This document shows, one piece after another, positions 3,181 to 58,400 of a DNA stretch of 64,000 nt; the stretch's first letter is position 1; the number at the start of each line of letters is the position of its first letter. Position numbers and translations under genes: made by a program. The stretch lies in contig CM097887.1 of the NCBI GenBank assembly GCA_044892525.1, positions 50,406,001 to 50,470,000 of the forward strand, given 5' to 3'. The DNA is from Schmidtea polychroa. Taxonomy: Eukaryota. Under the pieces are notes generated by a model. That model searched no databases, was not told the DNA's origin, and saw only the letters and a list, made by a program, of their open reading frames with translations.

Positions 3181-3183
<3 letters not shown>

Positions 3184-3198
3184 GAATTATAATTGTAG

Positions 3199-8800: not shown

Positions 8801-9403
8801 GCTTTAGAAATTCGTAAATTTTCGGCATTTTAGCGGCCTTCTGTTCTCGTTCCTCACGTGCTCGTCGCTTAGCAGCCTCACTTAAATATGACTTAGACAT
8901 AGTTAAGGGTGTGCAGCTAATGCAATTATATAATATCCAACTAATTATACAATTATTGTAAATTGATATACAATAAGCAATATTATTTTTATCCTTTTTA
9001 CCGCATAGTAAATATCAACAAAACCCTATGACCTCTGCCATGATGTCGTTATACCGCCATTTTGAATCGAGTAGGCAAGTAAATTGGATTTGACGTTTTA
9101 TTAATAAACAAGTCCTCATCACATAAAAAAAACCAACGTCAAGTAAAGCAAATAATTTAATAGATGAATGGGTGTACATATGTGGTTTACAACTATATCC
9201 AATATAGATTCCTAATAATATTAAATGTATAAACCGTCCAAACTGTGGTTGCTGTCTTAATAAAAATAAAACAAACGCCAAAGCGATGCTTGGTTTGATG
9301 ACAATCGGGGAATTTATAATGCTCGAACGTATAAATTTTACTAATTTTTCGTCCTGGGCCCTTGTGCCGTGCACAACCTGCACAACCTATTGCTACACCA
9401 CTG
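5897..9403 (-). mobile_element. hAT DNA transposon with a ZMYM1/DUF4371-type transposase
   Basis: Perfect 8-bp TSD GATGACGT (5889-5896 and 9404-9411); termini CAGTGGCGTA / CAGTGGTGTA (reverse complement); internal transposase. Confidence 0.95.
6325..8900 (-). pseudogene. hAT transposase with a single frameshift near the C-terminus
   Basis: 822-aa ORF with TTF Zn finger (CHACWVF), FFSIMVDTTQDISKIDQ, RGQGYDGAATM, CAAHNLNL, TRWSSRYD and CERSFSKLKLIK. A 1-nt loss near 6455 shifts off the normal tail MSEGRLTDLAMLSIE...FAQEKARKRPF* (stop 6325-6327). Confidence 0.9.
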
Positions 9404-23700: not shown

Positions 23701-26700
23701 CATTTTTGCCATCCCTGTCAGAATTTCATTGCAGCGGCCGTCTATCCGCAACTTTTCAATTAACTCGTTGATCGCGCTCTCAATCATTCCTAGGCGAAAT
23801 ATAATTGGTCATTTCTCACTAATCCTTCATGAGCTTACCAGATTGAGTAATTATCAATGCCAATAATAATCGGATTTTCTCAGACATGGTTGCCATAGTA
23901 TTATTGATGACGTTGACTACCATTTTGTCTGGATTCTTTATTGAATTCCCACTGGCATCAGTACCCATGGCTAAATTCTATAATTATCCATAGGTCATAT
24001 TTATATTTAGACCTTCATTTTCTTTTTCATTNNNNNNNNNNNNNNNNNNNNNNNNNNNNNNNNNNNNNNNNNNNNNNNNNNNNNNNNNNNNNNNNNNNNN
24101 NNNNNNNNNNNNNNNNNNNNNNNNNNNNNNNNNNNNNNNNNNNNNNNNNNNNNNNNNNNNNNNNNNNNNNNNNNNNNNNNNNNNNNNNNNNNNNNNNNNN
24201 NNCATTTAAGTTAACCTGGTAATATTGTAGTCATGATATTCTAATGAAACATTTATTATAAACGATATTTTCATATTTTAAAAATATTTGAATACTGATA
24301 AACTGTTATACCGGGTCTTGCACCCATCGCGGCACAAATGCCATTGGCTGGATTCTGTGCTCCAATAGATTCATTAGTCAAAATAAAAAGATCAAATTTG
24401 ATTGATAAATTTTTTCCTATATAAGATTTTCGTGTTTTGTGTTTATTGTTGCGAGGGGAATAATGTAAAAATCTCAAACTACAAAAAATGCACTAAAAAA
24501 TTCTTATCTAACAAGTCTATAAATCGACAGACATTTGGCTAGTCGCATAGTAATTAGTTATATTACTCATTACGAATGAGATTAGATTTGATCGAAACTA
24601 TTTTAACTTTATACTAATTTTATTGTACTCTTTACTGAATATCAATTGTTACAGTTTGTTGTAACGCCAGGTTTAAACAAAAATTCATAAAATGGGGTAG
24701 AAAGAATTCGATTTTACAAACATAAAAATAGAGTTATTAATCTATGTCATTTATGAAGGATTGAAAAATTCAGAAAAGTGTGAAAACGAAAACTGAGCTC
24801 ACTTGTTCACATTCGCATAACTGATTAACACCTGCCTGAAAAGCAGACAAGCAAGCCTCTGATAGATAGAACATGTTCCCCACCGAGGCTGCTTCTTGTC
24901 TGAGGTGGGGCATTTTTTTAACCATAACTTGTAGTTGCTTTCTGACCATGTCCTTATTTGAATTTGGTTCGTTGTAAGAATCTGGAGTTTTATTGGGATT
25001 CTCTGTACTATTGACTGTGTTATCAATGCTTTTCTGAGCACTTGCCAGTTGCTTCAATTTCACTNNNNNNNNNNNNNNNNNNNNNNNNNNNNNNNNNNNN
25101 NNNNNNNNNNNNNNNNNNNNNNNNNNNNNNNNNNNNNNNNNNNNNNNNNNNNNNNNNNNNNNNNNNNNNNNNNNNNNNNNNNNNNNNNNNNNNNNNNNNN
25201 NNNNNNNNNNNNNNNNNNNNNNNNNNNNNNNNNNNNNNNNNNNNNNNNNNNNNNNNNNNNNNNNNNNNNTGCAATGTGGTTGTGTCGTAATTGAATCCAT
25301 AAATCATCGTTTTCTGATAAATCAACATTTACTAGTTTTTGAGTATCAAAATTTTTATAACTAGAAATTGTGCAATAAATAAATACTTAATTTAAATAAA
25401 TATAAATTTTACCTGTAAGTGTCATTTTTTATATCCAATATGTCATAAGCTAAGCATTGCAAATGTAAATCGTGTAGTATAGGAGTTAGAGGATCAATTG
25501 AACGGTCTAATATTAAAAGAACACTTCGATCTTTATGCATTGTCTGAAAACAGAATAATAATAATTTTAATCATANNNNNNNNNNNNNNNNNNNNNNNNN
25601 NNNNNNNNNNNNNNNNNNNNNNNNNNNNNNNNNNNNNNNNNNNNNNNNNNNNNNNNNNNNNNNNNNNNNNNNNNNNNNNNNNNNNNNNNNNNNNNNNNNN
25701 NNNNNNNNNNNNNNNNNNNNNNNNNNNNNNNNNNNNNNNNNNNNNNNNNNNNNNNNNNNNNNNNNNNNNNNNNNNNNNCGGTGAGATCTCCCCGTTTGGT
25801 AATGTACTGCGATACAGTACTGCATATATGGTTTTCAGGATCTTTTTAATATATTTTGATGCCTTTTGCTAGCTTCGCTCCTTCACTCATATTAAACTAT
25901 TTTTTTATATAATACAGTAGATAAAGTTGTTGGGTTTTGGATTACTTCAAGTCGGTTCTCTCTGACTCCTGGTGTTCTTTAAATTAAAACAATGAACGAC
26001 CCAACGTATATTAAAACAACAGGTTCACAATTTATTATCACTTTACAATTACCAATCAAAGTTTTACACGATTCTCTGCTCGGCGTTGATGCTTTGCAAA
26101 CAAACAATATTCACCTTTTGATCCTTTAGTTCTGTTGACTCTCGTTTTCCTCGGTTTCGGTTTGGTTTGATCTCTTTTCTCCTTTCCGTATTCTTAATTC
26201 TATTTCTTCTTTTCCCTACTTCCCTAATTCGTTTACCACTTTTCCTACAGTCTAATTCTTCGAACCCTAGCTGAGGCAAAATGCCGATTTTCTCTGATTT
26301 TCCCTTTGCTTATATACTCCTCGAAATCAGGATGACAAATGGTTATTGCCGAGCCAATCTTTCGTTTGACATTTTCTCCTACGTGTTTGCTTCGGCTGTC
26401 ATCCATAATGGTCCAACGAATCCAGATAATTAATGGCCCTACCGGTCTTCCTACGCGCGTTATCTTCTCCTTACTCTTTTCCCATTAATCATTGTGTCAA
26501 ACTAATGGGCCCAAATCTTCCTTTTGTTTGCCTTTCTTCTTGTTTACCCAGCTCGGGTTTCCTTTATCTCTCGGGTTCTCCATTGGCTCGGGTTTCCCAT
26601 TAGCTCGGGTTTTCCATTAGCCAACTAATTAATTAATTAACGTTTTCTGTTTTCATACGTTTGAATGTTTTTCGACCCTTCCTAACCCTTTTCTGATAAA

Positions 26701-29700
26701 TCCCTAACCATCATCTTGTTGACCATTAGCTAATCTATACCTGTCCCGTTTTTCCCATTCGATTTCGATGATTTTTCCATTTATTGATTTTTCTCGGATT
26801 TCCGGATTCTTGCCTTTCGTAATTGCTTTTTGCCTTTTCTAATACTGTTTCCATCACACTTTCCTTTACTATTGATTCTGTGCACGATCCCGCTTTTATT
26901 TGCCTTTTTTCCTCGCTTACTTTCCATTTGAATTATTATCCTAATTTTTATTTAACTTTTTAATTTTAATTTACAGACCTCAACATATCTCCCCCCTTAA
27001 AAAATTTTTTCGTCCTCGAAATTTATGTTTTGCTGTGATTATGTATTATTACTATTATTATTGTTGTCGTTANNNNNNNNNNNNNNNNNNNNNNNNNNNN
27101 NNNNNNNNNNNNNNNNNNNNNNNNNNNNNNNNNNNNNNNNNNNNNNNNNNNNNNNNNNNNNNNNNNNNNNNNNNNNNNNNNNNNNNNNNNNNNNNNNNNN
27201 NNNNNNNNNNNNNNNNNNNNNNNNNNNNNNNNNNNNNNNNNNNNNNNNNNNNNNNNNNNNNNNNNNNNNNNNNNNNNNNNNNNNNNNNAAAATTTGATTA
27301 TATCCCTTTGTTTGTCGACAGTAAATATTGATAAGATGTGAATTATTTAGATCGAATTAAAAAAAAGATAGTGCTTTAGATATTTAGCCGAAATATTAAT
27401 TAATTTCTTTAATATCTAAATTATAAAGTTTCTATACGATTTTTGATTTTTAATAAATATTTTGATCAAGTATTTTTTTTGAGATATCAAAGTTTTAATG
27501 TCAGAAGATTTCCATTAAAAACTCCTTTCAAGATAACTTCATTATTTTATTACGAATTTATTCAATTGTAAAAATCCTATTTATTTTTTTTTTAATAACT
27601 CAACCACTATATCAATATTTTTTAATGAAAAGTAGAACATAAAGACAATGAAAGTAGACAGATGTGTTTCCGACAGATATAGGTCAAATTCCCAAACATT
27701 TTCAAACTTTGAAGTACATCACCAATCGATCCGGCACGTCTACCGTTTTGGGATAATATATTTCATTGGTTGTATGTTTATAGGCAGCATAGAGAATATA
27801 TTTCTGTCATCCGAAACGAATTCGATTGGTCGATTCGATAATTCCTGCTATTGAAGAAATTTTGAAACTATATCAGTTTATCACAACTGATTTTTTTTCA
27901 TTAATTGTCTCTCTATTAGTTTGTTAATGATATAAAATATATTAAAAAAAATTATATCGTTTTCCTTGTTCTTTATTGCCTAGACGGAAAAGCAGTGGAA
28001 AGTAATTTTATTTATATATTTTCAAATTATTTGCGTTACTTTAGGTTCAGCCAGCGACGGTGAAGGTAGATTAAAGGATTATCTGTTATTATGTTTATTA
28101 AAGACATGAAATATTTTGAAAAAATTTTTCCTTGTTCCTTATTGCATAGCCGGAAAAGCAGTGGAAAGTAATTTTATTTATATATTTTCAAATTATTTGC
28201 GTTACTTTAAGTTTAGCTAGCGATGGTGAAGGTAGATTAAAGGATTATCTGTTTAACTACAAAGGCTATAATCAGTTAATGTGAAGGTAGATTAAAAAAT
28301 TATTTGTTTAAATACAAAGGCTATAATCAGTTAATAAGGCCCGTTATGGATTTAACTGATGTAATCGATGAAAAGTTTGAATTAGCCCTTATTCAAGTCT
28401 TATTGTCAGGGAAATCGTATTTTTTTTTTATAGTTATTTAATTATAATTCTACTAATTTTTTTTTTTTGTTGAAAAGTATTTATTTTATTAATTTTTTTA
28501 AATAGTTATTTAATTATAATTCTACTAATTTTTTATTGAAAAGTATTTATTTTATTAAAAGTATATTAAATAGTTATTTAATTATAATTCTACTAATTTT
28601 TAAATTATTTTATCTATGAATGATATTTTATTGAAAAGTATATTAAATAGTTATTTATTTATAAATATAATTTTATGTCAAGTTGTAGAATTCTTTTCTG
28701 AAGGTCCTAATTAATGAAATTGTTACCAAATGATGACAAATATCATTATTATTTTATTTGTGCTGCTGCACGTCATTTAATGACTCTATCTACAATAAAT
28801 GTTATTTGATATATGTTTAAATTGAATATGAAAAATCTATGTATGGGTCAGTGATATAATATTTCTGAAAATAGAAATTATCATTATTCTTTTATTTATG
28901 TTGTTGTTTTTGATTAAAATTTCACTTAACTATATAACTTTAATTGGAATCATTTTCCATCACAAAACTCACTTATATACAACTTTTATCGGTTCATATA
29001 CTAAATAGTTGGTGGGGTTGGGATCCCAACGATATTTATTATTTTTTTTGTTTTATTGATGGGTTATAATTAATTCACTACCGCCTTTTCCACAGCATGG
29101 TAAAAAGTTAAAGTCTCCTACCGCACCGACCGACTCATGATATCACTTTGTTTACTCCCCATGATAAGCGCTAGCGGTGTCACTAATTGTCGGTAGTCCA
29201 CTTTTGTCTTTCCGCCTGATAAAGTATCTGCTATGAACATTAATATTCCGAATATCTAGATGAATATTTAATTATCCTACGGTTTTGACGTAGCCGATAC
29301 TGATAGGCTCTATAATTAATTACCCTGTGGTTTCTTAACGTAGCCCGTACTGATAAGCTTTCTAATTAATTACCCTGTGGTTTGTTAACGTAGCCCGTAC
29401 TGATAAGCTTTCTAATTAATTACCCTGTGGTTTGTTAACGTAGCCTGTACTGATAAGCGTTCTATATAAGTTTCTGCTTTACCACTTTTCGTTAGTTTTG
29501 TCTTGCCAATCTTCAAGTAAGCATTTTATATTTTATTTCTTTTTCATATTTTTTTTGAATTTTAGTAACGCCATCCATCAATTAATATGGACGTAAGTGA
29601 TTACTTGTCTTTTATTTTTTTGTGATTCTTTTTACCATGCTGTCCTCAACTATTAGTAATGCGTTCCCTCACAGCAACCGAGCATTTGCAATCGCTGTCC

Positions 29701-32700
29701 AGGGTAGCCAAACCCCGGTGATTGCAAGTGCTCGTGTTGCTTATTAAATTAACTTATTGATGCTTATTAAATTAACTTATTTACTTTTTTAATTTTAATT
29801 CGTTAATTTGTTTATGCAACTACCTACACTCATGTTTTGGGTTATATTTTTGATTTTTGATTTTGTATTTACACTAAAAGCAAACTTCTAATTACAGCTA
29901 CTCGTATTTTTCTGACAATTTTAGCCGTATTTATACTTATTAATTTATTACGTAATTCTTACAATCAATTACTTCCCTGCACTAATTATTTGTCGAGGGC
30001 GCCATGGTACGGAGTTTTACATAGTATTTATTTCGTTTTTTCTTTTCAACCCTTACTATTTTAGGCTGTGCCAGAACCTAAGTTTGAACATCTCGATGTT
30101 ATGCAATGGTTATTTAACTGCCATACTAACAGGTTTTTAATTTCTTTTTCAGGGTCCCTTTACCACCGCGTCGAAAGGGATTGAAACGTACCTTTGCCTG
30201 TGTGGATACAGGCAGTAGGTTTGAACGACGCCCGCCTTGCAATGTACGCAGGGAATGGGACTGTGGCATCCAAAGTCCCGTTCTGTTGGACTCTGATGAC
30301 GAATAAACTTTGAATAAATGTTCAGCATACCTTTGTTTTTAATTTATGCTAGAAAGGGTGGGGTAATTGTGTCCCTCTTCGCGATTAGTCTTTGTTACTA
30401 CTAATGTGAAATTATTCTTTACTTATTTAAAATTTTGTTCTCTCGCCCAGTGGGTTACCCATTGCTATATAGTTATGCTAATTCATTAATTACTAATCAG
30501 CCATATTATTTATTTCTAATGCTCATTTAAGGTAGTCATTTCATTATTTGCAACGTTTATTTGAGTTATTCTATTTGCTCGTTTAACTTTGTTCATTTTT
30601 ATCTATTATTCATTCATTTAATTTATCACTTTTTTACTTATTTATTTATATCAATTTGTTTATTCATTTGATTATTTGTTAATTTACTTATAATTATTTA
30701 ACTATTATTTTTTTTTTTTTCTCGAGGACGAAAAAACACCAACAGGGTCCGTTTAAATAATTTATTTTTTTAGTCTAATTGATTTATCTCACCATCATCT
30801 TCCGATTCCTCCATTTCTTCTACTCTCATTCGAAACATCGCGAAATCGGCTTCGTGTTGAAAAAATAAGATTTCCAAACGGTCCAACCGCCTTTTCAGAC
30901 GGAAGTTTTCTTCCTCCAAATCTGTTATTCTGCCCTGCATGCTACGAAACTTTTGTTTTAGTTCTTGCGTACTTGTTTTACACTCTTTGCATGTCATCTC
31001 CGAGGCTTCTTGCATTCTCTGAAATTAAATGATAGTTATTTTTTTTGTATCACTCCTTATTCGCAAAGCATCAACACCTCGCTTCGAATCTCAAACAAAT
31101 TACACAGTTCATCCTATGGTACTTATAAAACATGCACATTGTTAATATAAATGTAATATATTTTTATACACTATTCATGCAGATCACAATTTACAGTCTT
31201 GTCTCATAATATGATGATGGTTGAAGGATAGTTAGTTGTCTCTCTTTTACACATATCAAGATGGTGATGATTATGAATGTTATTGATAAGATGAGAAAAC
31301 CTGTTATTAAAATGTAAATGAGATATTCACAATAGTTGACTGTCAAATCCGAATTTATCATCATTAGTTTGTTTGAGTTAGGTTTTGTCGTCTCTTGGGT
31401 CGGTAATTGGAAAGGTGATGTGGTTGTATATGATTTTCATTTCGATTCATTGATTGTCTTGACTTCCACAAAAACTGTTTGCCATCTGCCTGGATCGGTT
31501 ATCCATCGCTGATATTTAACTGTTAATTCCCATGCCGTCTCTAAATCAGAAGTGTAAAGTGTAAAAAATTGATTACCGGCATCTAATATAGTCAGGGTTT
31601 TTTGTTTGTAGATAATAACAACTCTTTCATCATTTCCTGATTTTCTATATATCGTTACCGGTCCATTTCCAACACTCAGGGTTATACGATTTGACTCGTC
31701 TCTGAGATAGATAGACTGGGTCTCACTCTTAAATCGTGACCATTGGTTTCTCACTACCGTTCCATTTTCGAGGCATATGTTCTCGTAGTAGTTTGCATTA
31801 ACTGAATAATTTTGATTCATTTTCAATTTCTCGTAGCGGATAAATGATTTTCGCGAGTTAAGGGTGTCGACATTTAACCCTTGAAATGTGATTCGCACTT
31901 TCACCAAGTCCACTGGCTTCCAATATATATTGATTCCGTTTATCTCTGGCTCTATCTCGATCAAGTTTCGCATCTCTTTTGTGTGCACTTCTATCGGAAT
32001 TTGCGTGTACCACTTTGACATGTTCTGTCTCAACAGCCATTGGTATTTGTAATTTGGCTTTAACTTTCGTACCGCAACTATATCTTTATCATAATTCAGT
32101 TCTACCACTTGTGCCGTATTGTCTAGTAAATTAATAATTTCTATTTGGTCTGCGATCTCGCATTTACAGCTCCATACTATATTTGTTAGAGTGGAATATA
32201 TATGTATTTTCTCCATTCCTCGGATTTTGTTTACCGCATATGGTAAATCAATTTTTTTGCCGCTCGCAACTGTTACTAACATCAGCATTACTGCTACATA
32301 TAATATCTTATTGATGTAGCTGACTGGTGTTGGATTTTTCGTGAATTTCTGTTTCAATTTTGTTTGACCCGTTACTTTATTCTGCTTGGATCTTAAGGGG
32401 TATCTAGATTCATCTTCCTCTGGCACTAGTTTACATCGATTTGCATGCACAATCATCGGGTTAGCCTTTTTACTCCTGAATGGTAATAACTTCAAATTGG
32501 TTTCGGTGGTGTCGCACACTTTGTAGGGTCCTTTAAATGGTCTTTGCAATTTAGGCGATAAACCTTTGAGAGGTTCCGGTCTGTTCAGATATACTAGATC
32601 TCCAATCTTTATGCCATGCGCATGTGCTTTTTTATCGTATAATTCTTTATATTTCTCTTGGTTGTGCTTTATTGTCAAACCGGCTTTAGTCCATACTGAC

Positions 32701-35700
32701 TGCATTCTTTCTTGCATCAATGCTTTATAATCGGGTATCTCCATATATTGTGAAATTGGTGGTTGGAATTTGAGATCAATCGGCATATTATTTTTCCTTA
32801 AATACATCAAGTAAAAAGGGGTCTCTCCTGTACTTTGATTTACTGCATTTCTGTAGGCAAATAAACACGGCTTTATGAAGTCGTCCCAATCTTTCTGTTT
32901 TCGATTCACATATGATGAGATCATATTTATCAGTGTCCCATTAAATCGTTCCACCAATCCATCAGTTTGTGGATGATATGGTGACGTATTCAATTTCCAA
33001 ATTCCAAATAAGTCTGTGATTGATTTAAACATCTCACTTTGAAAGTTCTTTCCTTGATCAGTTAACAATTTCTTTGGAGTACCATAGCGAAATATTATGT
33101 TTTCCACAAATATTCTAGCAATCGTATCTGCTTTTTGGTTTGGAATAGCGTATGCTTCTGGCCATTTGGTAAAGTAGTCACAAAAAACAACAATGTATTT
33201 GTTTCCTTTTGTTGTTTCCGGTAATGGTCCCAGAATATCCATTGCCGTCATCTCCATTGGTGCTGCAGGTACTGGCATCGGTTTTAATGGTACTTTAATC
33301 TTTTTACCAGTATTTCTGCGGGTGATGCATACTTTGCAACTGTTACACCAATTTTTCACGTCTTGTTCCATTGTCGGCCAAAAGTATTTCAATTTTAATC
33401 TTGATAGCGTCTTGCGCTTTGACAAATGACCTCCCAACGCTCCATCATGATACTGCATCAGTAATGCATCTCTGTGCTTGGCTGGTATAATGATTAATGC
33501 TTCCCCATTTTTCCAACATTTAAGTATTCCATTATGAATTACATATTTGCTGTTTGCATCTGTAAGTCGTTTCCAGTCTTGTTCTTTTCTTATTTTGACC
33601 GCTTGTTCCATAAATTGTTTTAATTCACTATCGTTTTCCTGATCATTTTGAAGTTCAGACATATCATTAACAGCTTTGATTGCTGCGAATATAGTGCCTT
33701 CCACTTTTTCAGGTGTCCCTTCACTATTATTTTCTGGGATTCTCGACATTGCATCTGCATTCGCGTTAGCTTTACCTGTCCGGTATTTAATCTCAAAGTC
33801 GTATTCTTGGAGGGCAATTGACCATCGTATTAACTTACTGGCTGAATCTCTGTGTTTCATTAACCACTGTAATGGATTATGATCTGTATAAACAGTAAAT
33901 TTTCTGCCCAATAAATATTGTCTAAAAGTAGTAATTCCATACACTAACGCTAACGTTTCCTTTTCAATCGTTGAGTAGTTTTTCTCGTGAGGCCTCAATG
34001 ATCTGCTTGCGTATGCTATTACATGGTCCTTTTCACCTTCAAATTTTTGTCCCAATACCGCACCCAATGCAACGTTGCTTGCATCCGTCATCAAGATAAA
34101 TTGTTTTGTAAAATCTGGACATCTTAATATAGGAGTTGTTACTAATTTCTCTTTTAATGTATTGAAAGCGTTTTGTTGTATTTGTCCCCAAATAAATTTA
34201 TTGTTTTTCTTTAGTAACGTATTCAATGGTTGTGCGATATGAGAGAAATCTTTTATAAATTTTCTGTAATAGCTCGCCAAACCTAAAAATTGTCTAACCT
34301 CATCGGCATCTTTTGGTACTGGGTACTCTTCCACTTTTTTGATGTTATCTGGATTAGTTTGTAACCCTCGCCGTGATATTATATGTCCTACATAAATCAC
34401 TTCTGCTTTGCCCCATTCACATTTCGATGGTTTGATTTTTAATTTTGCACTTTTGAGCCGTTTAAATACAGTTTCTACATCCTTCAGATGTTCTTCAAAA
34501 TCATTTGAAAATATTATTATATCGTCGATATATACCAATGCATGTCGAATTCCTCGTAACACATAATTCATTCCTCGTTGGAATGTAGCTGGGGCTCCTG
34601 TTAATCCAAATGGTAACACATTGAACTCATACAGTCCTTTGCCATCCGAGAACGCCGTCTTTCCTCTATCTTCCTCTTTTACTCTAAATTGATTGTACCC
34701 TTTGTTTAAATCAATAACTGTGAAATATCGTGCCTCTCCCATTTGATCAAACATTTCTTGGGATACCGGAATTGGATAAGTGTCTTTCCTTGTAACTTGA
34801 TTTAGCTTCCGATAATCTACGCAAAATCGTAAGTCTCCATCTTTTTTCTTAACTATCACTATTGATGAGGAGAATGGTGACGCGCAGGCCCGGTTTTAGG
34901 CATAGGCGACGTCGGCAGCAGCCTAGGGCGCCGATTTACAAGCGGGCGCCAAATAGTTCTGCTTTTTTTATCAAGTAAATTAAATATTTTATAAACTTTC
35001 TATCTTTATATTGATNNNNNNNNNNNNNNNNNNNNNNNNNNNNNNNNNNNNNNNNNNNNNNNNNNNNNNNNNNNNNNNNNNNNNNNNNNNNNNNNNNNNN
35101 NNNNNNNNNNNNNNNNNNNNNNNNNNNNNNNNNNNNNNNNNNNNNNNNNNNNNNNNNNNNNNNNNNNNNNNNNNNNNNNNTTCCATCGTTGTTTTAGTCC
35201 GATACCGATTACTTATTTCTTTTAAAATTTAAAAAAATACAACGGAAAATCGATTTAAAAAAATATTTTGCAAGTTCAAAAAAGTTAACTGAAAAGCGGT
35301 TTTAAAAAAAATTTAGCATATAGCATGCTCTGAAATTTTTTTAAATTACGCAATAATTTTTAGTTTTATTTTAAAAGAATAAAGTCACATGCAGTAAAGT
35401 TTTAAAAGACTAAAGTAAATGTTAAAAAAGTTAAAAAATAAATAAACAGAAAGTGAAAAAAAAAATAAAATTTAATTAGTGCAGGGCTCAAATTTTTTTT
35501 ATTTAAAGTATATATAATTTCGGTCGTACTTCCAGTATAATTTTTACATATATACAACACAGTAATTTAATTTATATTGGATTTTTCTACACCTATTATT
35601 AAATCTATTATATTCTATTAATTTTTACTTGAGGTAGCATAATGGCAGATAGAAAAAAATTATCTGGCGCACAAAATAGAAAACGTAAAGCTGAAAAGAA

Positions 35701-38700
35701 AAATGAAGAAAAAAAGCAAGAAGGTGCTTTTCTGAAATATATTTGTCGTCAACAATCACAAGATAAAAATCGAAATGAAATGACTCCGAGAAAACAAGTA
35801 TACTGCAATTTGGAAGAGCAAATGGATAGGAACTCTACAACTAGAAATGCAGAGGTGCCTATTTTGACTGAGTTTCCACATACGAATGTGGAAGAAACTA
35901 TAGAAGAAACTGAAGTTGAAACAATTGAAGAAACTGTTGAAGAACCTATAGAAGAAATTGTATTAGAAACTATAGAAGACACTGAAGAAATTTTAATTAA
36001 TGAAACTTTGGAAATATTAGAAAGCGTAAATTCGAGTCTTGATTATAGTGATCCGGCAACTTGGTTAAATTCACATGACTTACGTTCTGGCCGTTTGAGG
36101 CAAATTTTGGTTGAACACGGACCAGAACAAATTGAAGAATTTGATTTTCCTCAAAATGAGAGCCATAGAAAATTTTCAATGAATTTTTATAGAAGGAGAC
36201 TTGCAAATGGAGAAGAAATGCGGCGTCATTGGCTACAGTATTCCAAAACAACTAATTCGGCTTTCTGCTTTTGTTGCAAAATTTTTAATAATAACCAGCG
36301 TGTAATACATCTCTCCGATAAAGGATCAAGCGATTGGAAAAATATGTCTGTAATTTTAGAAAGACATGAGAAAAATAAGGATCATTTAATTAATTTTCAA
36401 ACTTGGAAGGAGCTAGAATTGCGTTTAAAAAAGAATAAAACTATTGACCAGGATAATTTGCGTCTCATAAAACAAGAAGAGAGACACTGGCAACAAGTCT
36501 TAGAGCGTCTTATAGGTCTAGTTAAAGTGCTTGCTACGCAAAACATTGCATTTCGCGGAAGCAATGAAAAATTGTATTCTCCTGGAAATGGAAACTTCCT
36601 TAGCTTTGTAGAATATTTGGCCTCTTTTGATCCAATTATGGGTGAGCATCTTCGCAGAATAAAGAACAATGAAACACAAGTTCATTATTTGGGAAAAGAT
36701 ATTCAGAATGAGTTAATACAACTTTTATCTAAGAGTATTAAAACAAAAATTTTAAAATCGATTTCCATGGCTAAATATTTTTCAATAATCCTGGATTGCA
36801 CACCAGACGTTAGCCATACTGAACAAATGACGTTGATTATTCGTTTTGTCCATACAAATACAGAAAATTGTGATTTAGATCCCATATGCATAAGAGAACA
36901 TTTTTTGGGATTTGTGAAACTAACAGATACAACTGGTGCTGGTATGACCGATGAAATCGTTCAGATGTTAGCAGATATGTCATTACCTATTGAGAACTTG
37001 CGTGGCCAAGGATACGATAATGGTAGCAATATGAAAGGCAAAGAAAATGGCGTGCAACGGCGAATTCTTAATCTAAATCCACGAGCACTATTTGTTCCTT
37101 GTTCTGCGCATTCTTTGAATCTGGTTGTTAATGACGCTGTAAGCTGTTGTTTAGATGCTACATCATTTTTTATGTTAGTGCAACGAATATATGTCTATTT
37201 TGCCGCTTCAACACGTCGATGGGAAGTTTTAAAACGTCATGCTTCAAACTTGACAGTGAAGCCATTGAGCGATACAAGATGGGAGAGCCGAATCGATGCC
37301 CTTAAACCTCTACGCTATCAGCTAAGTAAAGTTATTGCTGCACTTATTGATATTTTTCAAGATACTTCTCAAACAGGAGTTTCTGGTAATACTTCACGTA
37401 TAGAAGCACAGGGCCTTGCTAAAGCTATTTCGAATTTCGAGTTTGTAGTTTCTGTTATTATCTGGTATGATATTCTTTTCAACATAAATATTACAAGCAA
37501 ACAACTTCAATCTGAGAAAATTAATATTCAAGATGCTATGAAGCTACTAGAAGATACCAAAAAATTTCTATTCAACTCCCGAAATGATGAAGGTTTTGAA
37601 AGAATATTGGTAGATGCGCGAGAACTTGCTGAAGAATCAGAAATTTCCCCAATCTTTAAACAAACTCAGCGTATCAGAAAACAAAAAAAACAGTTCGAAT
37701 ATGAAGCCAACGATGAGCCCATTCAGAACCCAAAAGAAAAATTTAAGATCAGCTTTTACTTCGCAGTTTTGGATAGAGCTTTAAAATCTGTTGAGCAAAG
37801 ATTCACCCAAATGTCAACGATAAATTCAACATTTGGATTTCTATACAACATACATAATTTGCAATATATTTCGTCAAAGAAAATATTAGAGGATTGTCTT
37901 AAACTGGAAAATTTTTTACGGCACGATGATTCTAAAGATATTGATGGTACAGATTTATTGAACGAATTGATATTTATAGCTAGACATATTCCAAAAAACT
38001 TATTGCCGGAAGATGTACTTAATTATATTTGTAAAAATAATATAGTGGACAGCGTTCCAAATATATTTGTTGCTTTGCGAATTTTATTAACCCTACCAGT
38101 TTCTGTGGCAAGCGGTGAACGAAGCTTTTCGAAGCTTAAACAGATCAAAACATATATAAGATCTACAATGTCACAAGAACGGCTTGTGGGATTAGCAATA
38201 TTGTCGATTGAACACGAAATGGCGCGTGATATAGATACGAAGTTGCTGCTTGAAGATTTCGCTAAACTAAAAGCACGAAAAATTAAATTTTAAATGGTTT
38301 TTGTTTTTATATATATTTTTGTGTAATAAATAAATGAAGTATAGTTATTTTATTTTCATTTACTTCTTTAATTATTGGGTTTGTTTCTAGACTAGAGGCG
38401 CCATTTTTTTAGTTTGCCTAGGGCGCCAAATACTCTAGCGTCGGGCCTGGTGACGCGCTATCTCGAATTATTCCAAATTCCTTCATTGCTGTAATCTGTC
38501 TATCGCTTTCATCTTGATGAACGTAGGGGATTCTGTATGGCTTTATTTTTATTGGAGTTTCGTCTAATAACGGTATTTCATGCTCAATTACATTGGTTAA
38601 ACCCAAATCATATTCGTGTTTGGCAAAGATATCTCGGTATTTCCTCAACAGTTTTGTGAATTCCTTTTTCTGCCTCTCATTTAAATCATTGCTTACCACT

Positions 38701-41700
38701 TCAGGCTCCTTATACACCTTGACGTTTCTTGGTATTTTACAATTTGTTTCAATAGACATTTTTGATAATTTTCCCAATTTTGTTTTTGGGTGTAGCTGAA
38801 CCGGTTTTTTGCTGCCATTCGTTATATGGACTGGTACTATCTGATTTTCCACTTTGACAACTTCGTCACATATCGGTAAATCATATTTTTCGACTAGCGT
38901 TTGATTTGGTTCGAATATAAAATCACCATTATCCACACTCATGGTATTTGCACAATATACCATCTCCGATTGTGGTGGTATTGTCAATGTCTGATTCACA
39001 AACACTTCACCTGCCCTGTGAATTATTTCTCCTGTTTCTCCTGCTATCAAATTACCTGTCTTTAAATCAAGTGAGACTCCGTCCAGCTGCTCTAATATAT
39101 CCATGCCGATCAGACATCGTACTGGGCTTCCCTTCATTATGAGCGCATCGTGCGCTATTATTCGATCTCCAATATGGAATATGACGTTAAGTTGTCCAAT
39201 TATGTTTAATTCATTTTTTGATAATGACCTCACTATTTCGTCGGTAGGCTTTATTCGCATTTTCTCCTTCGCGTTTAATACATTTTCCGATATTATTGTG
39301 TGACTAGATCCCGAATCAACAAAAGCTTCCACTTTATGTTTGTTCATTTGTATAAATATTCGGGGTTGCTTTCCTCTTTTTGTTAATGTCATCATTGAGT
39401 AGTTGCATGGTAAGCCTAACATATTTTTTCTCTCGATCTCTGCGCTAGAAGGCTCGATTCTCTCTCCTACCATTCCTTCACATTGTAATGCGATGTTTTC
39501 CACTGGTTTCATCTCTCGTAATCGATCAACTGGATACACTGGTGCTGGTTGCATAAATGATTTTGGTATACACAGTTTTGTAAACGTGTCTACGCTACTC
39601 GCATTCAACAGTGGCTCTTTTAAGATTTGATAGGTTCTTAACGCTTCTTTATTCATTCCACTTAGTTCTTGATTGTCAACATATAACGGTGCACTATCAC
39701 CCTCGTTGTCATTGTCATTGTTCTCGTCCCTTGAAGGGGTTGTACTCGCGTAGCTCACCTTTTTCTTCTTTAATATTCGAGCCTTGAGTATCTCCAACTC
39801 CTGATATTGATGATGAGTAATGAAGAATCTAGCCAATAATGGTATGCACCCAATTACTAGTTTCCACGACCAACCTGTGATCGCGTATAATCTGTGTGTT
39901 GATAGGACCTGCGATATTATTACTTTAATTACAACACATATTACATAAATTCCAATCAGTCCGGCACACGCTTGTCCAATGAACATAAACTTTCCCCAGA
40001 TCTTTTTCATTGTATTATACGTCGCTTTCTTGTAATGATCTGGAGTTAATAAATACTCATAATTTACCTTCCCACTTCCGCTTGGGAGAATTGTATCTAC
40101 CATTTCCATTATTACTCTTTCTTTCTTTGATGGAAATAACAAGTTTCTGCGAGCTTCCTCAATGTCTTCGTTCGAGTAAATTCCACTTTGCGACAATTTT
40201 TCTAACGACGTAAAATTTACCAGATATTGTAATTCTGTCAATTCTAAGTTTTCCGGTGTCTTTACTTCTCGATGATCTGGTAATGCAATCCAAGATTCTG
40301 GTGTTAGTCTGTATAATGGTGCTAACAATCTATTGCACTGTAATACTTTCGGTTTCGCGTCCTCTTCCAGTAAGATTCGTGTTACAGGCTCCATAAATCG
40401 CAACTTTCCATTTAAATTCACTGGTAACTCGTTGGTGCATTGGTCATACTTTGTCAGTTTAACTGGTACCGCTTTACATTTATAGCTATATAGTGCTTCA
40501 CCGAAAATTCTGGCGAACACTCCATTTTCTGCAATTAACATTGGTGCTACCAAATTAGGATTGGTTATAGCCATTGTCATCCGATTTCGGAGTATTTCTT
40601 TGTTGAGATTGCAATCATTTATAATAACTTCTCGGTACACATTTTCAACAGTATTTTGACCAAAGTGAAATAAATAATCTATTTTGTTATTAAAGTAATT
40701 TGTCAACTTAATATCTCCGGCATGTATGTTTGTTTGGGCCTCTGTAATCATCTTCTGAGATACATATATACCTTTATAATTTGTCTCATAGACACTTTGT
40801 CCACACTTTGTTTTAGTTTCTTTTCTCAGGAATCGCATCCCATCTTCCTCCGAGGTTGACATTAACACTGTTGGAGTATCTTTCATCCGTAGAGGTGTGA
40901 TTCTTGTTGTTGTACTCGTTGCTGGATCCATTCTTATTTTCTCAGGCTTTTCCCTGATCTGTTCTCCCGTTATTTCTTTAAAACTCATTGACTTCAATTG
41001 CACTAAATTGCACTTTTTGGTATCGACATCGTACACCAAGATTGATTCTCCTGTCTGACAGCTAGATTGTTTCATGTTGCAGAATGGATGTGTTTGTAGT
41101 TTACCAGTATCATCATCAAATGATCCATCAAATTCTCTTAATTCTGACATGTACTCTTCCACAACCACGGCTTTGTCCATTATAGCATCGTCTACTTTGT
41201 ATGGCTCGCCTTGGCAATCACCATTCGACTTTATTATCCCTCGCACGGTTACAGTCTCACGGATTTTGTGGTTAAGCTTTGCTTGTAGTTTGAGATCTGC
41301 ATTGATTTTCAACTGTCCTGTTTGAAAGGCTGCCAAACAATTCTCTGGAATTATTTCTATCGGTCTCGGTATCGATTGCATTTTCACCATCGATGAGTGG
41401 CTCCATTTCCCACAAAAAAATACAAAAGTAGTTCGCTTCACTGTACACTCTCTCACCTTTGCTCGTCGAAACCCCGATTCTTGATATACATGATATTTTA
41501 CTGGATTTGTTACTTTAAATTTTACTGGATATGCATCCGAACACTCTGCTACGTTTACCAACGAATATACTCTTCCCATTTCGGTTTGGGAGCAGTCGTA
41601 TGCCACCAATGAATTCGTCGTGTTTATTATTCCCAATAACATAATAATAGAAATCATTAACCATGGAAATGCGAGTTTTCCCTTTTTCCTCACTGTCTCG

Positions 41701-44700
41701 GTTTTTGGGCTCTCAGCCTTTTGTATCAAATTTTCCCATCCGCCATTGTTTGCGATCCACCTAGCCAAATATTTATTCGTCATTTCCGTAGCTTTCTTTA
41801 TCAATGATTTTGAACTGTCATTTTCCAGACAACCATAAATACCAATCTCCAATATTATATAGGCTAACGCTGTCAATATTACATCTCGATCTAACTCAGT
41901 TCGTGTTAGGTCCTCAATCACTGCTTCCTCACAAAATTCCTTTTCTTCATAATTTCTTTTAATTATCGACGGTAATCTCCTCTTTAATTCCGTTGCCAAT
42001 CTTTTTACAACTCTTTCCTCCCCCTCCAAAGTATCATCTTCTGTTTCAGTTTCATCTAACAAGTACAATTCCGTAACTAAACTTTTTAACATTCGTTCAG
42101 TCTCGTTTGATTCATCTAAACGCTCAGTTTCGCTCGATTTATCTAAACTCAAGGATTCAATTTCCGCATCATTCTGTTTTTTCCGACATATCGCAATGTC
42201 ATTTTTCGTTTCAACGAAGTTCTCTTCGCTCTTCATCTCATCTATGCTCGGTAGTACCCTATTATCGGTGCTCATTTCCTCGATATCCCTTGCAACTTCA
42301 TTTTCCGATCCCATTTCCTCTTTTTCCATTGTTTCTAATCTCTGCAATTCATTAATTTCTTGATCAATTTCTCCTGGGTCATCTACAACTTCAGTTTTAA
42401 TCTCCACATTATTATTATCCATTTCCTCATATAGAGGCCAAAACGGTACTATTACCGCATCTCTTTCCATTTCATCCCTTTGTTTTGTTGCGTACACATT
42501 ATTAATACAATTTGGGTTACATCCGTAGTTTAATAAATATTCGTCATCATCCAATTCTCGTCCTTTGAACGTCAACACGATAATTCCTTCATTACCTAAT
42601 ATCTCCGCTGCTTTTTGTCGTATTTTCTTTGCTTTTACACTCCAATGTTCCTGATAATATTCAATCCTTTGATCCGCAATATTTAACGCTATTATCAAAG
42701 ACTTCGCACTATCGTCTGCCGCCTCATAATCATGTCCTAGTTTTCGGATTACCTCTTTTAGTTTTGCCTGATAACTCGTCGGTTTATTCGTATACGGTAC
42801 GATGCATTCAAACAACCCTTCTTTCATGTCTCGATCCATTTCGATGCTCATTATGAAGTCGATACTCGCATTAATTTTATCTCTATTCCCTGCATACAGG
42901 GTATCTTGTAAATCTGCTAGAATCTTTTCCCAATTTTGTCTGTCTGAATTCAAAGTATTAACAGCATTAATAACATTTACTTTATTTTTCCAGCCTGGTA
43001 TCAGACCGCAATCTACTAAGTACTCTTCGTCTTCCAGACATCGATTTTCGAATTTTAATTGCACTTGCCATCCACTGTATTGACGCAGGATTCGCTCCTT
43101 TAACTCTCTGATTTGTCCGTAGGCATTTACACGGAATTGGCACTTCACATTATCAAGTCCCGTCGTTTCCACTATGATATCAGCTAAATCCCTTGTTGAC
43201 CGTAAAGCCTTGCCAAACTTTTGCATTTGTTTAAGTATCTCATCGTCTCTGTTTCCTTTGAATAACTTTGCACATAAATTTATGGCTCTCTTTAGTTCGC
43301 TTTGGGTTAGTGACATCACACTGAGTTCTGCGATCCATCGTTTCAACTGGGAGTTGTCAGTTTCCATTTTCTCAAGCCATTTTTCAACTCGGGCTAACAG
43401 TGCAGTTGGATTCTCATCTGAAGCGATCTTTCGCACTTTCGTGGCAGGTTTTCCCTCACCTTCTGACACGGTTCCAATTATCATATGAGATTCAGTTTCC
43501 TCATCTGATTCAAATTTCGCCACTAGTTTGTTTAGCTTCTGTCGCATTTCTCGAAATTCCTTTTCCATTTTGTCTTGAAATTCCTCTCTCTGAGCATATG
43601 TCATATTACTAGTGTTTGGCATATCTTCTTGGAATCTGATTGATTTCTTTAAAATAGGTCTGCTGAATCTTTCTGAGTTCCTTGGGCATGATCGCGCCAT
43701 GTGGCCGTATCCCTTGCACGAATGACATTGGATCTGTCCATTTGTATTCACTTTGTCCCTTTGTGGTGAAGGTGGCGTTGACGATGACCTTGATCTGGTA
43801 AAACAGTTTCTGCTAATATGCCCTTTCTTTCCGCATCGATAGCATTCGACATCACTGCTGATCCGTTTGTTTTCTGTGAATCTCTTGTTAGGGCTGGGAT
43901 TTTTCCCATATTTGAACCAACATTGATTTGAGTAGTGTCCAGACTTTTTGCAATGTTCGCATTGAGGATTATTTACCTGTCCATTTGATTGTACGTTCAT
44001 GGCTGATCTACTGGCTTGAAATCTATTATTTGGTCTCAAAATTGGACTACTGATCTGATTTATTTTCTTTTCATCCCATGGTGCTCTCACAGGCGTAATT
44101 GATCGCTCACGTCTCTCCACATTAACTCCAAAAGCATCTGATCTTTTTGCACTTTTTAAATTCAGCTCTATCTTCATGGCTTTCTTCACGAGCTCATCAA
44201 AATTGGAAAAATCCACATAACATAGGGCTTTTTTGATTTCGGAGTGGACTCCGGTTATAAACTGATCTTCTAATAGCTCTTTAACCTGCTTGGCCATTTC
44301 TGCTTGGTCTGGTTTAACTTCAAAGGCTTTATCTGCTAAAGTGGTCAGATGATAAGCAAACCTTGAACTCGATTATAAAATTTCTGTCGCATGATTCTTT
44401 TGATATCTCCACCAACCAGTTTCAGTGCCATTGCATCCTTCAATTTTGTCCAATCATTGCCAACATTTCGTTTGTCGACTTGCTGCCAGGCTTCTCTTGC
44501 CGCACCCTTCAAATAGAGTGGGAATCTCTGAACCATAATGGCTTGTGTCCATCCGTATGCTGAGGCGTACATATAATAATCTCCCATGAAATCTGCAAAT
44601 TCAACAGGGTCTCCTCCATATTGATTGACGGGTAATTTCTGGCAACTTGCGAAATCAATCATCTCTCTATTGAGAGGCATGACAGCATTATCATTTGCCA

Positions 44701-47700
44701 TTTGGACTTGTTTCTGACTTCTGAGGTTGTATCGGTTCACTTTGAGCTAAACTTCAAACGTTAAACAATAATTTAAAATTATTTTTCAACTTCTTTTAAA
44801 TCTCCCAATAATAGCCTTTTATAATCTCGTTAACACTATTTTCAAACTTCTAAGCCGACTTTCACTCGCGTCAGTACTAATTCTTTTTATAATTCCTTTT
44901 TCACTAGCTTTCAATAATTTCCCTCCGACTTTCAATCACGTCGGTACTATTTTTTTCAACAATTAATTTTTTCACTAACTTTCAATAATTTTCCGCCGAC
45001 TTGCGATCACGTCGGGCTCACCAGAATATATGTTGGGTTTTGGATTACTTCAAGTCGGTTCTCTCTGACTCCTGGTGTTCTTTAAATTAAAACAATGAAC
45101 GACCCAACGTATATTGAAACAACAGGTTCACAATTTATTATCACTCTACAATTACCAATCAAAGTTTTACACGATTCTCTGCTCGGCGTTGATGCTTTGC
45201 AAACAAACAATATTCACCTTTTGATCCTTTAGTTCTGTTGACTCTCGTTTTCCTCGGTTTCGGTTTGGTTTGATCTCTTTTCTCCTTTCCGTATTCTTAA
45301 TTCTATTTCTTCTTTTCCCTACTTCCCTAATTCGTTTACCACTTTTCCTACAGTCTAATTCTTCGAACCCTAGCTGAGGCAAAATGCCGATTTTCTCTGA
45401 TTTTCCCTTTGCTTATATACTCCTCGAAATCAGGATGACAAATGGTTATTGCCGAGCCAATCTTTCGTTTGACATTTTCTCCTACGTGTTTGCTTCGGCT
45501 GTCATCCATAATGGTCCAACGAATCCAGATAATTAATGGCCCTACCGGTCTTCCTACGCGCGTTATCTTCTCCTTACTCTTTTCCCATTAATCATTGTGT
45601 CAAACTAATGGGCCCAAATCTTCCTTTTGTTTGCCTTTCTTCTTGTTTACCCAGCTCGGGTTTCCTTTATCTCTCGGGTTCTCCATTGGCTCGGGTTTCC
45701 CATTAGCTCGGGTTTTCCATTAGCCAACTAATTAATTAATTAACGTTTTCTGTTTTCATACGTTTGAATGTTTTTCGACCCTTCCTAACCCTTTTCTGAT
45801 AAATCCCTAACCATCATCTTGTTGACCATTAGCTAATCTATACCTGTCCCGTTTTTCCCATTCGATTTCGATGATTTTTCCATTTATTGATTTTTCTCGG
45901 ATTTCCGGATTCTTGCCTTTCGTAATTGCTTTTTGCCTTTTCTAATACTGTTTCCATCACACTTTCCTTTACTATTGATTCTGTGCACGATCCCGCTTTT
46001 ATTTGCCTTTTTTCCTCGCTTACTTTCCATTTGAATTATTATCCTAATTTTTATTTAACTTTTTAATTTTAATTTACAGACCTCAACAAAGTAAAATAGA
46101 CTTGAGAACTAGTCGCTTGTCAGAATGCGCGGTGGCTAGCTCAAGGCACAATTCGTTCGATCGGTAATGTGTTAAATGTTAAACAAGTAATTGATAAAAT
46201 AAGATTTCGATGCGGAATATATATTAAATTGAATTTTCTCATTTAATTTAATATTAATTCTGCAGTGAAAGCTTATTTTATCATTTACTTGTTTAAAAAT
46301 AATAGTTATAATTATTATTAAACTTATTATTAATTATTTACTTACAAGGCCCATGAACCCATTCGCTTCATCATTTTTGAACATTTCTTGTTGAACTTTA
46401 ATTGCAAATCTTTGTGCCTCTTCTGTCCTAAAAAACCAATTAAAAATCTCAAAGTAAACAAAATTTAGTTAAAAAGAAAATATAATCAAAATTTATTATT
46501 AAAAATAAGCAAGACTAAATTTGACATTTAACGCTAACCTCTTGATTTTTTTAAAGAAAAATAGTTTGAATTTATATTTTGGATTTTTAGATAGTGATAA
46601 AACAAGGGAAATCTGCTTGCATTCCTAACTTAGATGGTCACAAAACAATGACATTATCATTGGTCATTAAATTTATTTTATTTTCTAATTCTTATTGTTA
46701 AATTAGATTTGACTAATATTAAAGAGAAATTGCTTTTAAAGTATAATACTACCCGAATAAAGAATTCTACTATCAATTTTACCCAATACTTACAATACTT
46801 ATCCCGGCAATACGAGGAGTTTCAGTTACGAATTGAACAAATTGTGTAAAATTATTTATTCTAGATGGCCATTCCCAACCCAAATAGTATATTTTGCATT
46901 AGAATCTCTTTTATGCTTAAAGTATAATTGGAATCATCACCTTATACTTTAGTAAATATAGTTATAGATAACAATTATATTTGAATTATATGACCAATAT
47001 AAACAGCTATCAAACTATCAATTGTGACCGTCACTGACATTATTGTCACTTGGTTATATTAACTGATTCCGGATTATTATTATCATTAAAACAACAAATA
47101 AAAAATTCTCTTTATTTACAAAATTAATAAAGCATTGGCAAAAATTTGAGACGAAAATAAAACCAAAATTATAGTGAAAACTTTTTATGTAGAAAAAATT
47201 TAATTAACTAAAATTTATATTATTTTAACCTTCGCGGAACATTAATGAATAAATAAAAATATACAAGTAATGAAAATTAAAAATGTTTGGAATCAAAGAA
47301 AAAATACAATAAATGATTTTTACACAAAATTTAAGACTGTAGGGTTCTGTGATTTGACAGCTTCTTCATATACGATGCCTCTTCTAATGGTACACTAGTT
47401 TAGAACTTATATAGATCTTATTTGATTCGAATGTCATTACAATATTTAGTTGTGTTTAAACCGATGTTGAGATACAATAATGGGTTTTTGAAACTTATTT
47501 TGTAATATGTGGCCACAGCTGTAATATTTTATGTATAATAGTAATGAAGTGATCAGGTTCTCGGATCTGGCAGTAATATGATTGTGTTCAATCCCCAATG
47601 GTACCATATCTGTTACATAATAGTGATGAAAAACAAATAAACTTAGTAGGTAGATATAGTGGCCTACGGCAGCAATAGGGGGGGGGGGGGGTGGGTCAAA

Positions 47701-55410: not shown

Positions 55411-58400
55411 ATTATTAAAAGTTTATTATTATTTTAAACCAATGAGAAGTAAGAAAAAGGAAATAAAAGCGAAGCTAAATTCCATAAAATTGAAAAGGGA
55501 TATGTTATAGTCGAATTTTTTTCCTCTGTATTAAATTTATTATTCGCAGCAAAAGGCTTAAATTATCATTTAATTGTTTTAAAATTTAATTAATAAGTAA
55601 TCATCAATTTATATTATTATTATCATCATTACTTTTGTTAAACAATTCAATGATAATCTAAGGCTTTTATAGTTGAAAATTATTTCATTTTATTAAATAT
55701 ATACTTCGCAGCAAGGCTTAAATTATCATTTAATTGTTTAACATTTAATTAATGCTGCTACCAAGAAATCATCACTTTATATAANNNNNNNNNNNNNNNN
55801 NNNNNNNNNNNNNNNNNNNNNNNNNNNNNNNNNNNNNNNNNNNNNNNNNNNNNNNNNNNNNNNNNNNNNNNNNNNNNNNNNNNNNNNNNNNNNNNNNNNN
55901 NNNNNNNNNNNNNNNNNNNNNNNNNNNNNNNNNNNNNNNNNNNNNNNNNNNNNNNNNNNNNNNNNNNNNNNNNNNNNNNNNNNNNNNNNNNNNNNNNNNN
56001 NNNNNNNNNNNNNNNNNNNNNNNNNNNNNNAAAAAATGATTTTACAATGATAAATGTAAAAAATCTTGAACAGTTTATCCCAGGGGTGGGCAAAAGCCGG
56101 CCTGCGAGCGTCTCCGGCCCTTTTGCTTATTTTATCCGGCCCGTTGAAAAATCCCGCGTGCAATTTTTTAAATCTCTTTTATGCGATTTTGTAAAAATCA
56201 ATAGTATTAATGTGCGTAGTGTACATATAAATAATGAAAAATATAAATAATAGACAGTATTATAATTTCGAACAGCCGTAATTGTTAAACATAAATTAAG
56301 CATAATTTCATTAAAGTAACTACATCAGAAATACATTATGATACTTTAGTGACGCATCTATAATTGGTTGTGCACACCAACCTGTATTATAAATGCGTTT
56401 GTTCACTGCAATCGGGTCTACTTTAATGTATGCAACATACTCTCACAAAGCGCGTGGTTGGCTAAATTGAATTGAAAGTACATAGAATTGAATGTGTACT
56501 CCTCTCACTCTTTGAGGGATTACAGGTCACAGTACGCGTACTGTTTATTTTGATTTAGCATTGGTCGCATACTCGTCGTCATTTCTTTTAAGAGTCTTAA
56601 ATTAAGACTAATGTTTGTTATTTTGCTAATATAATAACAAATTAAATAAGTGGACTTCTTGTAAGTAAAATTTTAAAACATTGGTTTTATTTTATTGTAT
56701 TAATTAAATTATTTATTTATAGGCCTTTGTAAAATGAGTCAATCTAAAAATAGAAAAGTTCATTTGGAATGGAGAATGTTCAGTGAAACATGGACGGTAA
56801 AAAACCTTTTACAGACATTGATAATAAAGTAATTTGTTTAGTTTGTCAGGAAACAATTGCTGTTTTCAAGAAATACAATATAAACGAGCATTTTAAATCA
56901 AAACATCCAAAATATACATCACTTTCTTTAAAAGAACTTCAAAATGCAGCAGGAAACTTGGAAAAAGACTTGATTAATAAACAAAATATTTTTACCAAAC
57001 AAAGTAATATCGAGAAATCTACCACAAAAGCAAGTTATGTTGTTGCACACCAAATTGCTAAGTTCTGTAAACCGTTTACTGAGGGAGAATTTGTACAAGT
57101 ATCGGAGATATGTTGTCCTGAAAAGAAACATATTTTTGAAAATGTAAGCCTATCGAGAAGAACAATAGTACAACGGATCGAAAATATTTAAGGAAATTTA
57201 TTTGACCAGCTAAGAAGAAAAATTGTCGAGTTTACATATTGTTCTCTAGGTTTAGATGAGTCCTGCGATTTTACTGACATAAGTCAGTTATTAATATTTA
57301 TTCGGGGCATTAACAAGAAATGTGAAATTAGCGAGGAACTTCTTAGTGTGCATCCATTGAAAGATACTACTACCGGTGAAGACTTCTTTATCGTTGTTGA
57401 AGAGTGTTTAGTTAAAGTAAATTTAACTTGGAACCAAATATTAAGCAAGCATCACTACGGATGGTTGTCCTAGTTTAACAGGAAAAATGTGGGCTTACTA
57501 AAACGAATCAGCGACAAATTAAAAGAGTTGCAGCCAGAACAAAATATATTGTTTTTACACTGCATTATTCATTAAGAAGTGCTGTGTAGAAAAGTCTTGA
57601 AATGGAATCACGTCGTTACTCTTGTGACAAAAGTTGTGAATTTTATCCGGGACGTGCCTTAAATCATCGACAGTTTGTTGAATTTTTGAAAGAAATTGAA
57701 AGTGACTTTTACGAAATTCCTTATTACGCTGAAGTGAGATGGCTTAGCATCGGTAAAGTTTTGGACAGGTTTCAATATTTGCTTGATGGAATAGTATCCT
57801 TCTTGTCGATAAAAGGAAAACTACATGATTTTCCTGAATTGCAAAATGAGGCATGGCTAAACGATTTCGAGTTTTTGTAGATATTGTAAAATATTTGAAA
57901 GAACTAATTATACATCTACAAAACCAATTCGATTTAAATATGCACTAAAACGTCAAAGCATTTATGATAGAACTCAATTTATTTGATGAAAACTTTAATA
58001 AGAAAATACTAAATCATTTCCCCTCATTACAAACACGACGAGAATCATTGAAAAATACTGATTTCCTTAAATGTAGTGCAATTACACAAGACCTGCATTC
58101 TGAGTTTCAAAGAAGATTTCAAGAATTCAAAGCTATTGAAAATCCTTTATCATTAATTAGTCAACTTTTCAATTTCGATGTGCAAATTGAAATTCAACTA
58201 AAACTAATTGACTTACAGTCAAATAATTTACTAAAGGAAAACTTTAATTCGAACGAATTGAGTGCTTTCTACTGTGCTTTGAATACAGAACATTTCAAAT
58301 ATTTTTTTAACTATATTCAAAAATACCTAGTTTTATTTGGTTCGACATATATTTGTGAAAGAACTTTTTCCTTAATGGTTTCCACTAAAAATGAACATCG

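Follow-up and report, generated by a model that had tools for sequence, protein, structure and literature searches.

The window analysed here is a 64,000-nucleotide stretch of the planarian Schmidtea polychroa (contig CM097887.1, positions 50,406,001 to 50,470,000), and it carries on its minus strand a young, virus-like long terminal repeat (LTR) retroelement whose Gag-Env-Pol polyprotein contains two copies of a module built from a four-helix bundle and a ubiquitin-like (Ubl) domain. The element spans 20.2 kb including an inserted hAT transposon (about 16.6 kb without it), is bounded by LTRs of 1058 bp (25928-26985 and 45031-46088) that differ from each other at two positions, and is flanked by a 4-bp target duplication, AAGT. 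The modules are encoded by an open reading frame (ORF) of 1984 codons (38418-44372, minus strand; protein P0001). The coding order of the element is Gag capsid, three CCHC zinc knuckles, the two modules, an acidic linker, a Bcl-2-like domain, a hydrophobic segment, a gB-type fusion protein, protease (PR), reverse transcriptase (RT), RNase H, and integrase. Module 1 consists of a bundle at 43203-43409 (residues 322-390) and a Ubl domain at 42966-43181 (about residues 398-469), and module 2 of a bundle at 42720-42947 (residues 476-551) and a Ubl domain at 42483-42707 (residues 556-630). Upstream lies the nucleocapsid with its three knuckles (43686-43961; found by motif scan, zf-CCHC E 3.3e-9). 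Downstream follow the acidic linker (42033-42482; 32% Asp + Glu) and the Bcl-2-like domain (41718-42032), which matches Pfam Bcl-2 at E 0.0014 and whose family profile retrieves BFL-1/A1, BOK, and Bcl-xL with a best E of 9e-4.

An earlier note on this DNA, made from the letters alone, had described two ubiquitin-like segments after the nucleocapsid, and this description is borne out: a beta-grasp fold is predicted for the Ubl domain of module 2, and that of module 1 shows sequence homology to the ubiquitin family (Pfam ubiquitin; Ubl profile 27.9 bits). The structural check proposed in the note gave this fold for module 2; the single-sequence model stays below a pLDDT of 50 over the module 1 Ubl. 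Single-sequence folding was poor overall (pLDDT 43), and Foldseek with that model gave no match at E 0.001. Among its fold matches Foldseek elsewhere lists the Ubl insertions of BVDV polyproteins, the VIA structure list obtained with the good model is filled by Ubl rows, and the ESM Atlas matches, all below 0.8 and to be taken as leads only, are mostly of the ubiquitin type. Profile matches comprise the Ubl domains of BAG6, ubiquilin, and ISG15. ISG15 is specific to vertebrates, and its place in the ranking is best taken to reflect a general resemblance to Ubl domains.

The absence of a di-Gly end, also claimed previously, was confirmed for both Ubl domains of the window, and among the 16 module junctions examined in the clade a di-Gly follows only one. 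The hydrophobic patch of the Leu8-Ile44-Val70 type, as found in UBL proteasome shuttles, is not conserved in the modules. The column of Ile44 holds Lys and Thr in the two window modules, Ile in none of 17 modules, and an aliphatic residue in 7 of the 17; the Val70 and Leu8 columns vary as well, the register of the last strand being less certain. The modules have instead an acidic signature of their own, D-D-D-E-[YF]-L, whose Glu is retained in 13 of the 14 modules from elements other than Burro1. The single Gly-Gly belongs to module 2 of Burro1 (L084:7740-7790), where the sequence ...SGG is spaced from the last strand much as in SUMO and lies directly before the stretch leading to a MATH domain; it is possibly a protease site special to Burro1.

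Each Ubl domain is preceded by a helical block, as had been noted, and in both modules this block is a four-helix bundle (for module 2, AlphaFold2 pLDDT 78-92 and helical profile 23.7 bits). The GNRD motif that the note saw in both blocks did not survive as a conserved signature of the repeat, being out of register with a 9% probability of arising by chance. The helix arrangement of the bundle appears to resemble that of the TFIIS N-terminal domain (TND), known from TFIIS, MED26, IWS1, and Elongin A, over nearly the whole domain, but sequence support is lacking. HHalign of the bundle against the TND family (PF08711) gave 0.25%, no better than shuffled controls, with shallow alignments as input, and the helical profile reached at best 5.9 bits on planarian TNDs. 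The IG signature before the third helix, found in 8 of 8 planarian TND rows, is absent from the module alignment. A search of the PDB sequences with the helical profile yielded no row below E 0.25 and listed no TND, BAG, or death-fold domain, an absence that excludes nothing.

The module occupies the same position in each of the other five element families that were examined from the genome (781 Mb, four large contigs) and in eight further relatives. The number of modules differs between families: it is one in B and C (about 3050 codons) and two in D and E (about 3370 and 3516 codons). In Burro1 a single module stands out clearly, located between MATH and Bcl-2 (module 3; 18 bits on the module profile). 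Two stretches before the MATH domain of Burro1 score 4.9 and 3.4 bits against 2.2 for a reversed control, so that Burro1 probably carries three modules, as judged from these profile scores. When 1.84 billion representative proteins were searched with phmmer, 8 passed E 0.001, of which 7 are module-bearing fragments; the eighth, P0015, was discarded because its match, to HA repeats, was judged to be due to chance. A search for homologues of near length added one module-bearing relative, and word-indexed searches aimed at longer proteins gave no match. Among these relatives, P0008 holds two modules, P0009 the end of one and one whole, and the Gag proteins P0012 and P0013 one each. Wherever the downstream part is in frame (B, C, D, E, and Burro1), it runs into the Bcl-2-like domain and Env; P0013 stops after the Bcl-2-like part.

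A single old tandem duplication is the favoured origin of the module pair, because all four first copies cluster together when 14 modules are placed in one tree (87/87, unstarred, on long branches), with the reservation that an 11-row tree without D and E does not join the first copies of the window and P0008. Modules 1 and 2 of Burro1 were excluded from both trees and its module 3 from the 14-module tree. Conservation is higher in second or single copies than in first copies. Direct self-BLAST of residues 281-900 found no internal repeat. Rough dN/dS values, with dS near saturation, are for B versus C 0.09 for the bundle, 0.13 for the Ubl domain, 0.04 for the capsid, and 0.11 for the Bcl-2-like domain; for D versus E they are 0.26 and 0.39 for module 1 and 0.17 for the bundle of module 2, the remainder being saturated. 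At the level of codon comparison, these values show purifying selection on the module in the sister families.

The window's own family is abundant. Of 2061 candidates, 131 were scored, and all 131 match at 97-100% along the whole two-module stretch, which puts the family at no fewer than 131 copies. A stop inside the stretch was found in 25 of the scored copies, and 13 sit in frames of at least 3333 codons. In one copy (L101) module 1 and the bundle of module 2 are gone and Gag runs to the second Ubl domain through a plain internal deletion. Codon variants relative to the window, counted over 29 young copies, comprise 21 synonymous and 24 non-synonymous ones. Without selection roughly one in four codon variants is expected to be synonymous, and the observed share lies above this expectation. 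Three single-cell RNA runs from one study, each sampled at 2%, gave 2101, 4153, and 1628 reads over 38460-45030 (6.6 kb), a family-level signal summed over at least 131 copies, and 6, 5, and 9 reads over a 6.1-kb flank. The reads cover 30 of 30 bins, and their loose poly-T ends fit oligo-dT priming on the sense strand. A sequencing-run index recorded none as RNA among the runs listed as carrying sequence.

The element belongs to the GAG-ENV-POL errantivirus/Burro clade, as its LTRs, primer-binding site, Gag-CCHC region, and PR-RT-RNase H-integrase order show, together with the in-frame gB-type Env between Gag and PR that follows the Ubl and Bcl-2-like domains. Smed_errantivirus_2 (Chary and Hayashi, eLife 2026, PMC13524379) is of the same family; its Env row equals the window Env at 246 of 251 residues when compared by eye. 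It is described with GAG-ENV-POL order, a gB-type Env, and 215 listed copies, and its cargo is unannotated, 'ubiquitin' and 'bcl' having no match in the main text and seven supplements (figures lie outside such a word search). Its table lists no tRNA primer, whereas the window element has a tRNA-Trp site. For the giant Gypsy-like elements Burro/GYPSM1, section 7 of Arkhipova and Yushenova (2019, PMC6431247) describes a Gag with three CCHC knuckles, a Ubi2/SUMO-like domain between MATH and BCL-2, and an in-frame Env that lies after BCL2 and ahead of PR; interference with apoptosis and ubiquitination is suggested there. In the window, the modules immediately precede a Bcl-2-like domain and an in-frame Env, an arrangement that the earlier note missed and that is published for Burro elements. 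The gene order and both domains, Ubl and Bcl-2-like, are already in print. That section describes a single Ubl domain without helical partner or repetition, in contrast to the two bundle-bearing modules of the window. Burro1 proper also exceeds 30 kb and has MATH in its polyprotein (E 1e-29, P0005), whereas P0001 has none. No paper returned by our literature searches describes such elements with a repeated helix-Ubl module or with a TND; several Ubl domains may already be depicted in the figures and supplements of Grohme 2018 and Lee 2026. BAG6, ubiquilins, UHRF1, and the pestivirus insertions likewise embed a beta-grasp in a larger chain; the modules differ from them in lacking both di-Gly and a conserved Ile44 patch, in their fixed upstream four-helix bundle, and in their acidic signature.

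We tentatively propose, with a probability of roughly 0.45, that the tandem is a non-conjugating docking adaptor which helps the Bcl-2-like domain to keep the host cell alive and permissive. The proposal builds on the duplication, the module 2 fold, the position between the nucleocapsid and the Bcl-2-like domain, the conservation across the clade, the purifying selection in sister families, and the missing di-Gly and Ile44 patch. The N-terminal part of the polyprotein would stay cytosolic, either freed by the element's protease or tethered to the membrane through the signal sequence of Env; this sequence would at the same time provide a tail anchor for the Bcl-2-like domain. The hydrophobic segment at 41604-41681 (hydropathy 2.0 at residues 898-916) likely serves as this signal peptide and as the membrane anchor of the upstream part. 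Both the bundle and the conserved acidic surface, D-D-D-E-[YF], would take part in binding, with module 2 as the conserved copy and module 1 as a faster-changing extra that may reach other partners. A partner from cell-death or ubiquitin signalling is suggested because the constant neighbour is Bcl-2-like and the Burro1 cargo includes MATH, TRAF-like, and IAP proteins: there the same modules are surrounded by a TRAF-type MATH domain, and BIR-RING and TRAF-like ORFs are carried too. The Burro1 IAP is reported to shield stem cells from apoptosis (Lee et al. 2026, as described in PMC13465017). Several points weigh against the proposal. The suggested function is drawn from the neighbourhood, and the partner is hypothetical. 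The Bcl-2-like domain is degenerate and below the Pfam cut-off, and no such part was found in the short available stretch of the relatives P0009, P0011, and P0014. An AT-hook-like RGRP motif in the linker of seven relatives (not in the window's family) points, with the TND-like bundle, to the nucleus. The RNA signal says nothing on per-copy output or on the window copy, which is itself broken in two places. When module 2 and the Bcl-2-like domain were modelled as a complex, without alignments, the score was 0.00, which is evidence neither way.

An alternative that we consider rather unlikely is that the module serves the element itself as a folding, spacing, or trafficking unit of the polyprotein, late-domain-like or regulating the stability of a Gag-side product, with the element's own proteins or membrane-budding factors as partners. 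Retroviral p6-type late regions sit directly after the nucleocapsid, as the module does, and one to three copies are retained in every family examined. Other env-carrying Ty3/gypsy elements, on the other hand, are not reported to need such a module, 'ubiquitin' being absent from the text and supplements of PMC13524379 named above, and the co-occurring Bcl-2, MATH, and IAP suggest a host-directed cassette. A role in the nucleus seems still less probable to us: the bundle would be a captured TND (LEDGF-IBD-like, the LEDGF IBD being a structural relative of the TND), and the module, once cut free, would enter the nucleus and bind either elongation factors, at their TND-interacting motifs, or the element's own integrase, leading to more transcription or steered integration. 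The RGRP motif of the seven relatives speaks for this role, the lacking sequence support and IG motif against it. It is equally doubtful that an env-bearing retroelement clade captured a TND-type domain, fused it to a Ubl domain and an AT-hook, and amplified it one to three times into a self-encoded nuclear adaptor. If true, the adaptor would link the element to host transcription elongation or tether its own integrase, and self-encode a job for which lentiviruses borrow host LEDGF.

The matches to BAG6, ubiquilin, and ISG15 would also suit a proteasome-shuttle mimic or decoy acting through canonical ubiquitin surfaces. With Ile never present in the Ile44 column and the Val70 and Leu8 columns variable, we regard this as improbable; of the idea in the earlier note, the integral, non-conjugatable Ubl holds and an adaptor is the likeliest role, but a decoy for the proteasome or deubiquitinases (DUBs) through the usual surfaces finds no support. 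A processing tag of the pestivirus type, or a conjugatable modifier cut by host DUBs, is very improbable: it could draw on the BVDV fold matches and the ...SGG of Burro1, but GG is missing after both window Ubl domains and at 15 of 16 junctions, which contradicts it for this family.

The 5' LTR (45031-46088, TG...CA) is followed by a primer-binding site for tRNA-Trp(CCA) at 45006-45023, which matches the 3' end plus CCA of a genomic tRNA-Trp (ARAGORN) at 18 of 18 positions; the gap to the LTR end is 7 bases (45006-45030), long for such a gap. The N-terminal part of the Gag capsid (44345-44746; Retrotrans_gag E 4.2e-5) starts in another frame, with the break near 44350-44372. Env, of class III and gB type, lies at 39723-41603 (Monjiviricetes_fusion E 7e-94; transmembrane segment about 39933-39989 by hydropathy) and the aspartic protease at 39087-39353 (Pfam gag-asp_proteas E 2.4e-7). 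The second break is the hAT transposon (34885-38449, plus strand; 886-aa transposase, 8-bp target duplication), inserted between PR and RT. RT, RNase H, and integrase with a C-terminal extension span 31437-34884; the extension of about 300 residues (31437-32350) has a hydrophobic start, is rich in predicted beta-type sequence, has no Pfam match, and is possibly a second surface protein. The 4.1-kb stretch between pol and the 3' LTR (27051-31139) does not align with its 2.6-kb counterpart in copy L112, although both flanks do.

Elsewhere in the window, additional ORFs or remnants of hAT-type transposases (DUF4371, hAT dimerisation) occur at 6432-9014, 19570-21132, and 57949-58497, and a 452-codon frame at 3199-4557 (EF-G domain III, E 1.1e-6) probably represents one exon of a host gene for a GTPase resembling translation factors. 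The genome also has a multicopy BIR-RING ORF inside a MATH-bearing element like Burro1, and in Burro1 a separate TRAF-like ORF (TRAF zinc finger and MATH) lies just upstream of the BIR-RING ORF (L083:4431-5891 and 3112-4287). Multicopy BEL/Pao-type Gag ORFs (DUF1759; L091:3641-7825 and L092:2558-6016) follow a near-canonical ubiquitin ending in GG, and other host fragments (a dual-specificity phosphatase; EAP30 and a proteasome subunit) also precede them. Short multicopy ORFs of Bcl-2-like type (L046-L060), which have a TBP-like ORF and further small ORFs as neighbours, are unrelated to the LTR clade and possibly represent an endogenous DNA virus or Polinton-type element. A tandem tRNA-Trp gene array with a period of 284 bp was found at L157 (G000:C4 from 55022300); its pattern has 854 matches genome-wide, many of them in the array.

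Planarian Burro-type elements are a rare example of retroelements with working host-modulating cargo, and the helix-Ubl repeat is the most constant piece of this cargo, being present also in families without MATH in the stretch examined. Because the module is small, easy to express, and predicted to fold well, its partner is a directly testable question.
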